Assembly (NCBI RefSeq): GCF_057098645.1
Contig: NZ_CM169472.1
DNA: 64,000 bases
Strand: one strand, 5' to 3'
Part shown: one piece after another, positions 15,001 through 18,000 of the stretch
Layout: every line of letters begins with the position of its first letter
Position numbering within the stretch: the first letter of the stretch is position 1
Program-made: the position numbers

Positions 15001-18000
15001 GTTAGCGCGCAGGGAGAAGAGGGAGGGACCCCGAACAGGGGAGTGCTATTTATCTGGAAGGATTCTGTTGATGAAAATCGAAGAATTACGTGAAATTTTT
15101 AGTGAAGATGGCCTCTACACTGCGTGAACCGCCCCGGGTTTCCTGGAGAGTGTTTTATCTGTGAACTCAGGCTGCCAGATCATCGTTTCCGATGGAAGCA
15201 TAATAAGCTTTTTCTGCTTCTGCCGGAGGAGTATGGCCCAGCCTTTCCAGCAATCGTCGATTGTTATACCAGTCCACCCACGTGAGTGTGGCCAGTTCCA
15301 CTTCTGCACGGTTTTTCCAGCTCTTACGGTGTATTACCTCCGCTTTGTAAAGACCATTGATGCTCTCCGCCATCGCGTTGTCATACGAGTCACCTGTACT
15401 CCCTGTTGATGCCAGCAGTTTTGCTTCTTTTAGTCGCTCCGTATAGGCCAGTGATACATACTGAGAACCTTTATCACTGTGATGGACTGTGCCGGACGGC
15501 CGACGGGCCCACAACGCCTGCTCCAGTGCATCCAGCACGAATGTCGTTTCCATAGACGATGAGACTCGCCACCCCACGATACATCCGGCAAACACATCAA
15601 TGATGAACGCCACATAGACGAAGCCCTGCCATGTGCTGACGTAAGTAAAATCAGCCACCCACAGCTGGTCAGGACGTTCTGCCACGAACTGACGGTTTAC
15701 GCGGTCGCCTGCGGAAACGGCTTTCCGGCTGACGGTAGTACGGACCTTTTTACCCCGGAGAACACCGGCAAGTCCCATAACCGCCATGAGACGTGCCACA
15801 GTGCATCTGGCCACTCTGATACCTTCCCGTAACAACTGACGCCAGACTTTACGCACACCGTATACCTTGTGATTTTCATCGTATACGCGCTGTATCTCTT
15901 TCTTCAGCCAGTCATCGCGCTGCGCACGGGCACTGCGTTTATCCGGATGATGTCGCTGTTGCTGACAGTGGTAATACGTTGACGGGGCAATATGCAGTTC
16001 GCTGCATAGCGGTCCGACCCCGTACTGCTCACGCAGCTTATCCAGCAGTGGCATCATTTTTTCCAGAGGCGGTCGAACTCCGCCTTCGCAAAATAAGCGG
16101 AAGCCTGGCGAAGGATATCGTTACTGCGGCGCAGTTCACGATTTTCACGCTCCAGCTCTTTCAGACGCTGACGTTCAGCGGTGGTGAGCCCTCCATCACC
16201 GCCCCCGGTATCCCGCTCATGCTGGCGAACCCAGACACGCAGAGTCTCCGGCGTACAGCCAATCTTTGGAGCAATGGAACAAATTGTCGCCCATTGTGAG
16301 TCATATTCGCCCTGACTTTCCAGAACCATACGGACTGCCCGTTGACGGACTTCAGGGGAAAAACGAGTATTTTTAGTCATCCTGTTTACCTCTTTCTCAG
16401 GAAGTTTAGTCTCCAGGATTCCCGGGGCGGTTCACCTTCAACGGAGGCATTTAATGCCATATGTAATGTAACCGATGCCATATCTCTTGATACATGGAAA
16501 AAAACAGTTAAACGTTTTTACGATACGCTGGTGGTGCAGTTTGATATTGAAGAAGCATGGGCAGAACAACAACTGAAAAAGGTGACCAGATAGCTTTGTT
16601 GATTTTTCCCGAATCTGTGGTAAATTTGCCCTAACGATGGGCGTTTTATGCCTGACGTTAGAAGATTTTTTACACCCGTCGCCAGGCGGGTTTTTTTATG
16701 ACTGAAATCACGCCAGTACAGTAAACGCGCTGGTGGTTGTGAATACCGGTCTTTCAGCTTGCTGGCTTTTTCGACAAGAGTTATTGGTGTGTCACGTTAA
16801 CCGGAAAAAGGAAAGTTTGAGAAACGCGATCTGGCACAGGCGGTTATTAATGCTGCCTACCTGGTGGCCTGTGCAGATGGTGAATGTGAGGCTTCCTAGA
16901 AAGCGAAGATCGAACAGGTACTGCGTAATCAGCCTGCGCTGTCCGCGTTTACGTCAGAAATTAATGCGATTAGCGCAACCATTATCGGTCAGCTGGATAC
17001 GAACTTTAAAATTGGTCGTCGTGCGGCGTTACGTGAGATCGAGGATGTGAAACACGATACGCGTGAAGCGGAAGATGTGCTGGATGTGGCGGTGGCCATT
17101 GCGGAGGCAGACGGCGAAATTGAGCCGGAAGAGCGCAAGGTGCTGGAAGAGATTGCCGGTGTTCTGGGTCTTCGTCTGGAGAATCACCAGTGACGGTAAA
17201 ACTGCGCCTGGCTGTGGCTGCACTCCTGCTGTTTCTGGTGGTGATGGTGGATTTCACCAGCAGAATCATGTCGGTGCTGGCGGATGGGGTGCTGGTCTGC
17301 GGCATTGTGGTATTGCTGTGGCCGGTGATAAAAAGAAACAGCCTGCATAATGCTTGATTTTTTTGTTTACTGTTTATTAAAAATACTACTGCATGGTGAA
17401 TCCCCCTGTGCGGAGGGGCAATCAGCAACCAGGTATATGTGATAATCGCGGATTCAGGTGCTGATACTGAATTCACCGGGAGGCACCCGGCACCATGCAA
17501 GAAAAAGAATGTGCATGCAAACATGCCCCTCTCCGGAGGGGCTTTTTTATGGGTAAAAAATGCCCGAATGGGTTCGGGCAATAGCATGAGATACTGATAT
17601 TGTTGTGTTGTTATCGTGTGGATTTTAACCAGGGTTTATCAGGCTGCGCAACTGCGTGGCCTTTTTTCATTTCTTGGGCTGTAGTCCCCGTGTGTCATTC
17701 AGGCTTCCGGACTACAGCCCACTCCATATCTGATTTAATACACTATCCCGGCCGGGAGGAATAATGACATTTAAACATTATGATGTTGTCAGGGCGGCGT
17801 CGCCGTCAGACCTTGCGGAAAAGCTGACACACAAACTGAAAGAGGGCTGGCAGCCGTTTGGTAGTCCGGTGGCCATAACCCCTTATACCCTGATGCAGGC
17901 GATTACAGCAGAAGGTGATGTGGTGGTCAGTGGTGCAACTGAGCCGGATTGGTACTACGTCATCGTACTGGCCGGGCAGTCCAATGCCATGGCTTACGGT

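Follow-up and report, generated by a model that had tools for sequence, protein, structure and literature searches.

In phage lambda, late control is built from the antiterminator Q, the terminator tR', which ends the 6S RNA, and the late promoter pR', where a promoter is combined with a sigma70-dependent pause element and the Q loading site. In prophages of enterohemorrhagic E. coli (EHEC), the DNA 3' of pR' forms a 'moron' site with convergent small RNA (sRNA) genes, and the sRNA AgvB is encoded in the Sakai prophages Sp10 and Sp17 (Tree et al. 2014, PMC4104026). Here, we describe a locus of this type in a 64,000-nucleotide stretch of contig NZ_CM169472.1 (NCBI RefSeq assembly GCF_057098645.1), called the window below; all coordinates refer to it. 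The segment upstream of the esterase gene nanS-p is very probably the late-regulatory and moron part of a degraded lambdoid prophage. Q, the late-gene activator of this lambda-like prophage, was in all likelihood destroyed through a deletion of about 2.65 kb brought about by the insertion sequence (IS) IS629.

An intact version of the locus exists in E. coli O145:H28 strain RM12761 (NZ_CP007133.1, approximately 1,389,300-1,412,000), whose prophage is colinear with window 1011..22849 at 99.3-99.7% identity. The ancestral order preserved there is hokD, two small open reading frames (ORFs), DUF968, rusA, Q (273 aa, lambda type), pR' with its pause element and tR', a truncated tciA, tciB, STnc100, AgvB, nanS-p, holin, lysozyme and Rz. 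RM12761 and its Shiga-toxigenic E. coli (STEC) relatives (O26:H11 11368, O103 and O111) share with the window pR'/tR', a TerB pseudogene with the same stop, tciB, STnc100, AgvB and nanS-p. The RM12761 prophage differs in three ways. It keeps 2.65 kb on the stretch from hokD to the TerB pseudogene (a small ORF with a frameshift, an ORF of 92 aa, DUF968, rusA and the intact 273-aa Q), it is without the IS21-family insertion of the window, and it carries an IS629 of its own within the Rha/ash gene.

The locus resembles lambda in having a Q of family PF03589, in the register of the TAAATT and AACGAT elements, and in an intrinsic terminator shortly downstream of them. It differs from lambda, whose Q has 207 aa, in that the corresponding protein has 273 aa with an extra CxxC zinc-ribbon segment, and in that 81% of the Q gene is deleted. 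The published moron site has the same order of Q, pR', cargo coding sequence, convergent sRNA pair and conserved esterase ORF (PMC4104026); in the window, a dead tciA and tciB form the cargo, not stx or a different moron, and no complete Q precedes them. The locus is a case of ordinary IS629-mediated prophage decay at a well-described site, with every component drawn from a known family and an architecture that has been published. Only the deletion junction itself is unrecorded so far, the rest of the locus being already known. The loss of Q alone is particular to the source genome, and the TerB pseudogene and all DNA 3' of Q form a fixed, widespread module. In a collection of 5,426 complete E. 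coli genomes, used for the surveys of junctions and modules, at least 80% of window 16435..17800 is found in 216 genomes. At least 30 complete genomes, O26:H11 11368, O145 and O103 strains among them, have the same interval at 100% identity beside an intact Q, annotated 'antitermination protein'.

The Q remnant lies at 16435..16593 on the + strand. It consists of codons 222-273 of the 273-aa lambda-type Q, the last 52 of the gene, followed by its TAG stop (16591..16593); codons 1-221 are deleted. By tblastn, the stub is 100% identical over 52 aa to residues 222-273 of the Q of the Stx2a phage Stx2_EH1910, which are also those of the RM12761 Q, and it matches lambda Q residues 156-207 at 40% identity (E 4e-8). 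The profile matches are C-terminal as well, covering positions 44-87 of 87 in the Pfam model Antiterm (PF03589, E 1.5e-8) and positions 201-252 of 253 in PHROG_127, 'Q-like'. The intact 273-aa relative gives two matches to Antiterm (E 2e-28; residues 24-111 and 178-265), and the full-length protein is a lambda-family Q to which the zinc-ribbon segment has been added. The stub does not comprise the full-length Q with its Antiterm domain(s) and zinc-binding core, and it is a gene fragment rather than a functional member of the family. The original prediction held that no Q-like ORF lies anywhere between the replication genes and nanS-p. It was right that an intact Q is absent: four Q proteins used as tblastn queries (that of lambda and those of 273, 126 and 229 aa) gave a single significant match in the 64 kb, at 16435..16590, and the best E values for the 126-aa and 229-aa families in the window were 0.27 and 0.52. 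Taken literally, the statement was wrong, since the stub itself is Q-like.

The stub is directly preceded by an IS629/IS1203 element of the IS3 family on the - strand (15125..16434, 1310 bp), the only IS629 copy in the window. Its terminal inverted repeats are intact and both start TGAACCGCCCCGGG. The two frames, orfA at 16054..16380 and orfB at 15167..16057, appear in the ORF list with 108 and 296 aa, and an IS3-type frameshift pseudoknot is recognized by the Rfam model ALIL (15983..16099, 120 bits). The copy is 96-98% identical to annotated IS1203/IS629 copies, and its length, its inverted repeats and its orfA/orfB pair with a programmed -1 frameshift all identify it as IS629/IS1203. The original prediction started just to the right of the Q fragment and IS629, and it missed both. 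An 83-aa ORF (16342..16593) opens with a TTG start within the IS629 end and continues, in the frame of Q, through the stub. This is probably a fortuitous fusion without the Q core, which automatic annotation would show as a 'hypothetical protein'.

IS629 is not flanked by a target-site duplication; the sequences next to its ends, CTGCG on the left and CCTTC on the right, differ. In contrast, the IS21-family element in the same window has a 6-bp duplication, ACAGGA. The flanks therefore mark a rearrangement rather than a simple insertion, and they do not speak against membership in IS629. The left flank (14982..15124, + strand) ends within a small hypothetical ORF 3' of hokD, with the breakpoint between 15124 and 15125. 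Its alignment to the RM12761 prophage locus runs up to locus position 12777, it also aligns to positions 3026..3167 of another compared locus, and the uninterrupted site in strains 90-3040 and 2013C-3492 matches the window at 100% as far as 15124. To the left of the deletion, the last early-region feature that is intact is a hok/sok-type toxin-antitoxin pair on the + strand, composed of the sok antisense RNA (14497..14667; Rfam, 105.9 bits) and the hokD toxin ORF (14665..14820), named as annotated in colinear genomes. About 2.65 kb, from just 3' of hokD through Q codon 221, is thus replaced by one IS629. The segment exchanged corresponds to approximately 12780..15429 of the RM12761 locus, where DUF968, RusA and the antitermination protein are annotated. 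By tblastn across the 64-kb window, RusA, DUF968, hyp279, any other Q and Stx are absent.

The history of the deletion can be approached through other genomes that carry the same IS end. The hokD-side junction is present at 100% in three genomes, C325, Z1323HEC0422 and Z1323HEC0399. In these, the other IS end abuts the equivalent of window 39097, upstream of sar/ant, and a further 22.7 kb with late regulation, lysis, head and most tail genes is absent. From these alignments, nested IS-adjacent deletions from one anchored IS629 are the most likely explanation for a single conserved IS end with two different partners. In the proposed sequence of events, IS629 would have been anchored at the hokD-side junction and an adjacent deletion would have reached into Q. 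Such behavior has precedents. IS629 is linked to genomic deletions in EHEC, and IS-adjacent deletions ranging from a few nt to more than 40,000 arise during IEE-dependent excision, according to the passages of PMC9943667 that cite Ooka 2009 and Kusumoto 2011. The IS629-driven small structural polymorphisms and IS-adjacent deletions of EHEC, as those passages present them, resemble the window in that IS629 is retained, one junction is conserved, the flank is deleted and no target-site duplication is present. The difference is that the IS end is joined here to Q nt 664, an arrangement found in 0 of the 5,426 complete genomes.

Homologous recombination between two direct-repeat IS629 copies, one 3' of hokD and one at Q nt 663/664, could also have removed the intervening 2.65 kb, and it would likewise leave one IS without a target-site duplication. 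The Q gene has been hit by IS629 repeatedly, near Q nt 759 in UTAK-4 and after Q nt 156 in PV16-126. However, neither an IS629 junction at Q nt 664 nor a simple insertion on the hokD side is seen in any complete genome. The common left junction with two right junctions (16435 in the window and 39097 in the three genomes) is obtained more simply from one anchored IS with deletions of different extent, and the window has no IS629 at 39097. We regard recombination between two copies as possible but doubtful. The evidence for the deletion has weak points of its own. The right-junction query found the exact IS629-Q junction in none of the complete genomes, and the deletion is therefore without independent corroboration; the full 3.6-kb query reached at least 80% coverage in one genome, which has a different structure. 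No genome of the collection carries a simple IS629 insertion at the hokD-side site, which leaves the order of events less secure between adjacent deletion and two-copy recombination. A third concern is the assembly. The contig may have been misjoined across two IS629 copies, in which case DUF968, rusA and the 5' part of Q would still lie between two IS629 elements in the real genome. In favour of a misjoin, IS629 occurs in many copies, its matches reaching about 50 places in one genome, and the right junction is unique in the collection. On the other side, none of the missing genes turns up within the 64 kb of the window, and closed genomes contain real deletions anchored at the identical left junction. 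A misjoin is very improbable, and it would leave the functional conclusion unchanged, since IS629 would still interrupt Q at nt 663/664. The locus adds one more example of IS629 eroding the prophages of attaching-and-effacing or Shiga-toxigenic E. coli. The junction of IS629 with Q nt 664, being unique among the complete genomes, can serve as a marker for strain typing.

The cis-acting elements of late control are retained next to the Q stub. The putative pR' (16599..16638, + strand) has a -35 element TTGATT (16599..16604), a 16-nt spacer, a -10 element TAAATT (16621..16626) and a predicted start at A 16633. A -10-like pause element, AACGAT (16633..16638, + strand), follows six bases after TAAATT. 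The promoter was placed by alignment with lambda pR' rather than by a promoter scan, and the alignment keeps GGTAAATTTG, six bases and AACGATGGG in the same register. At the sequence level, the stub is thus followed by its cognate pR', with a sigma70 pause element close to the promoter and, further downstream, a terminator. The latter is an intrinsic terminator of tR' type (16674..16697, + strand), with a 7-bp GC-rich stem (hairpin 16674..16691) and then a T run. The interval 16633..16700 folds at -21.3 kcal/mol (z -3.0) with a terminal hairpin. Region 16435..16705 is 100% identical to the post-Q region of phage Stx2_EH1910, and the same identity is seen in many STEC genomes.

Terminator-like hairpins are enriched in this part of the window, with 7 pattern matches in 16400..17900 vs 1.8 +/- 1.2 in shuffles. 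The 7 matches represent four distinct hairpins: 16674..16691, 17525..17542, 17580..17561 on the - strand, and 17641..17662. Three of them are on the + strand between pR' and nanS-p. The third of these (17641..17668, stem 17641..17662), just upstream of nanS-p, was found in the terminator scan and folds at -14.9 kcal/mol (z -4.6), and its role as a terminator is a prediction. The original prediction reported two hairpin terminators. The hairpins are real, but they number four, at least two of which are the ends of sRNA genes.

Loss of Q with these elements in place suggests a definite state of the late operon. The promoter pR' would still fire constitutively and give a short RNA of about 65 nt (16633 to approximately 16697) that ends at tR'. 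The 6S RNA of lambda, for comparison, is about 194 nt long vs the roughly 65 nt predicted here. Without Q, RNA polymerase would halt at tR' or at the + strand terminators at 17525 and 17641, and the prophage would for that reason be unable to switch on nanS-p and its lysis and structural genes by itself. Blocked in cis, these genes would respond only to an identical Q from a co-resident phage. The surmise that late-gene expression may be impaired is supported by the Q deletion beside intact cis elements. The deletion would explain why a prophage that carries effector genes cannot carry out the late programme unaided. Upstream, a second block is likely, because the early rightward operon is interrupted by the IS21-family element directly behind cro/dicC.

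It had also been proposed that the late genes are 'controlled differently', and Q could be absent by design. The window has no intact Q, and several small early ORFs have no known function, as a Q-independent system would allow. With NCBIfam, tciB, nanS-p and the early ORFs that lie between the replication genes and hokD all stayed unnamed. PHROGs named some of these, and no antiterminator is among those named. However, PHROG scans of the seven main early-region ORFs (10188 to 14207) found no Q, and none of the seven matches an antiterminator family. An IS-cut Q fragment occupies the canonical place, and pR', the pause element and tR', all of a Q-dependent design, are kept. The near-identical, colinear RM12761 prophage has an intact Q at the position of IS629 and the stub, which already contradicts this reading. 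We give hardly any credence to control that is independent of Q by design, and we return to the loss of Q by deletion.

Some observations detract from the functional side of this account. A simple sigma70 scan called neither pR', which has 8/12 consensus matches, nor the sRNA promoters. That pR' is active, that transcripts terminate at tR' and that nanS-p and the lysis genes depend on Q is supposed by analogy with lambda and Stx-phage biology. A further point concerns a supply of Q from elsewhere. The Q-3'/pR'/tR' module is present in 1,673 of the 5,426 genomes, 474 of which have it at 99% identity or more, and a single genome has at most 4 such places. Since this module is spread in E. coli genomes and is found in one Stx2a phage, a Q of the same allele from a co-resident phage could antiterminate the late operon in trans. 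The median number of places matching the module at any identity is 1 per genome that has any, which lowers the chance of such a supply. An extension of this idea treats the Q-less prophage as a 'passenger' late operon, silent alone and switched on in trans when a co-resident phage with the same Q is induced, with the RNA of about 65 nt from pR' to tR', STnc100 and AgvB made constitutively and the short pR' RNA possibly acting as an unrecognized regulator of the Hfq type. It is suggested by the base-for-base identity of pR'/qut/tR' to Stx2_EH1910 and many STEC prophages, and we consider it unlikely on present evidence.

Downstream of tR', the window carries the cargo of the moron site. The tciA/TerB pseudogene (16812..17193, + strand) lies in a frame that is open from 16801 to the TGA at 17191..17193, and its homology is to Pfam PF05099 (E 2.6e-10; model positions 2-109 of 118). 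It has two lesions. Where the gene meets the Q-pR' module (16812..16814), it has lost its start codon and about 17 N-terminal codons, and an in-frame TAG (16897..16899) stands where intact tciA has GAG. There is accordingly no intact TerB/TciA reading frame with a start codon at this site. The nucleotide identity to intact tciA/TerB genes is 94-97% (aligned with PPyecE_EH1910 and RIMD 0509939). RefSeq labels 100% identical TerB copies as 'internal stop' pseudogenes, and many STEC genomes carry this pseudogene at 100% identity with an intact Q next to it. A 55-aa membrane ORF of tciB type (17190..17357, + strand) overlaps the tciA stop by 4 bases. It is intact, belongs to DUF3927 (Pfam PF13064, E 4.8e-17) and to the TciB-like PHROG_1470 (E 4e-30), and has the same translation as the RM12761 ORF labelled WP_000216636.1 by RefSeq. 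Other prophages have intact tciA/tciB at the equivalent site (PPyecE_EH1910, RIMD 0509939 and JLK-2012), and the pair is one of several alternative cargoes of the moron site. The original prediction had described both the TerB remnant with its in-frame stop, at 16801..17193, and the membrane ORF, and both descriptions hold, except that the 5' loss had escaped it. Its view that they are present 'instead' of stx is misleading, since tciA/tciB-type cargo with convergent sRNAs is common content of the moron site (PMC4104026).

Two characterized sRNA genes, STnc100 and AgvB, complete the site, and the apparent gap at the stx position is therefore a standard cargo site. The STnc100-family prophage sRNA gene (17365..17554, + strand) matches Rfam RF02076 over model positions 1-206 of 206 (147.8 bits vs a gathering threshold of 47). 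It has its own terminator, a stem at 17525..17542 with a T run, supported by the terminator scan and by folding. The gene for the anti-GcvB sRNA AgvB (17555..17616, - strand) is convergent with it and matches Rfam RF02702 (96.5 bits vs 56). Every position of AgvB equals the Rfam family consensus, including the CACAACA mimic of the GcvB seed, and its terminator stem is 17580..17561. The function of AgvB is taken from work on the Sakai strain (PMC4104026), and binding to GcvB is predicted for the copy in the window. Both sRNAs should be expressed regardless of Q because they appear to have promoters and terminators of their own, and they plausibly still act on host regulation. A putative AgvB promoter on the - strand (17617..17665) has a -35 element TTGCGC, a 17-nt spacer and a -10 element TAAAAT, and it overlaps the hairpin at 17641..17662. 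A single element may thus both insulate nanS-p and carry the AgvB promoter. An Rfam search at relaxed E values yielded just two more matches, one to AsxR that overlaps AgvB and stays below threshold and one to suhB over pR'-tR' that is due to chance.

The region between Q and nanS-p is also the place where Stx-converting phages carry stxA and stxB. Neither is present there, and tblastn with Stx2A and Stx2B gave a best E value of 0.56 over the whole window. Transfer RNA (tRNA) genes of the ileZ/argN/argO type, which lie upstream of the toxin genes, are missing too, and ARAGORN found 0 tRNA genes in the window. The original prediction had anticipated the absence of stx and had suggested a search for tRNA genes; both results agree with it. 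The Stx2a phage Stx2_EH1910 (LC567834) encodes the identical Q protein and is identical to window 16434..16814 at 380 of 381 nt, an interval covering the Q 3' end, pR' and tR'. After 16814, the two diverge: the phage continues with a small ORF, a DNA methylase, three tRNAs and stx2AB, and the window with the truncated tciA and tciB. No copy of the methylase or the small ORF of the phage was found elsewhere in the window by tblastn. Nothing examined gives a sign that the prophage carried stx in the past.

A short constitutive transcript from pR' to tR', StxS, has been described in 933W-type Stx phages (PMC7547250). The RNA predicted in the window is like StxS in concept only, the Q/pR' module belonging to a different family, and no function can be transferred. 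Homology to StxS was considered and rejected. The pR'-tR' transcript of Sakai Sp5 (locus 2346..2603) was placed from the coordinates in PMC7547250, corrected for the record version, and blastn against the window at word size 7 returned only matches of 9-16 nt, the two longest of which fall in terminator tails.

The late genes themselves are in good order. The nanS-p-type sialate O-acetylesterase gene (17764..19614, + strand, 616 aa) is the first intact gene of the late operon and matches PHROG_143 over its full length. Next come the genes for holin (19907..20113), lysozyme (20801..21334) and Rz (21770..22228). All four are intact, and their ORF lengths equal those of RM12761, whose annotations read SASA family esterase, class II holin, lysozyme and lysis protein. 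The intergenic region between nanS-p and holin (19615..19906) opens with a hairpin flanked by A and T runs, and it is without about 140 bp present in RM12761, a second copy of the hairpin module. The sRNAs PasA and PasC have been reported between the esterase and holin genes; PasD, which is related to STnc100, lies directly upstream of the esterase gene, and matches to STnc100 and AgvB occur near the Pas sRNA genes (bioRxiv 10.64898/2026.05.13.724894). Beyond correct annotation, the locus as a whole is of little importance.

The remainder of the prophage shows further signs of wear. The IS21-family element (7620..10258, 2639 bp; istA 7741..9387, istB 9161..10159), bounded by the duplication mentioned above, splits a ydaT/cII-like gene just 3' of cro/dicC. 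It is likely polar on the early rightward operon and would then be a second, independent defect. The immunity region is of the Qin/DicA-DicC type, with a DicA-like repressor (6854..7261, - strand) and a DicC-like protein (7338..7565, + strand). In the early-left region, Rfam identifies a cluster of sRNAs on the - strand, consisting of C4 antisense RNA (5300..5387), IsrK (5412..5488) and DicF (5723..5774). An intact Rha-family gene (4685..5539) adjoins this cluster, and its RM12761 counterpart is the gene split there by another IS629. Within the tail-gene region, at 39146..40092, a sar antisense RNA (Rfam, 66.7 bits, - strand) adjoins an ant-type antirepressor gene, matching the arrangement of P22-like immI modules.

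Two type III effector genes lie at the right end of the prophage (47698..54038), and cargo of this kind may be the reason that a defective prophage has been retained. One encodes a NleL-like HECT E3 ubiquitin ligase (NF011904, 1116 bits). The other encodes a 1133-aa protein with a CNF-type C-terminal domain, which we take to be EspN-like.

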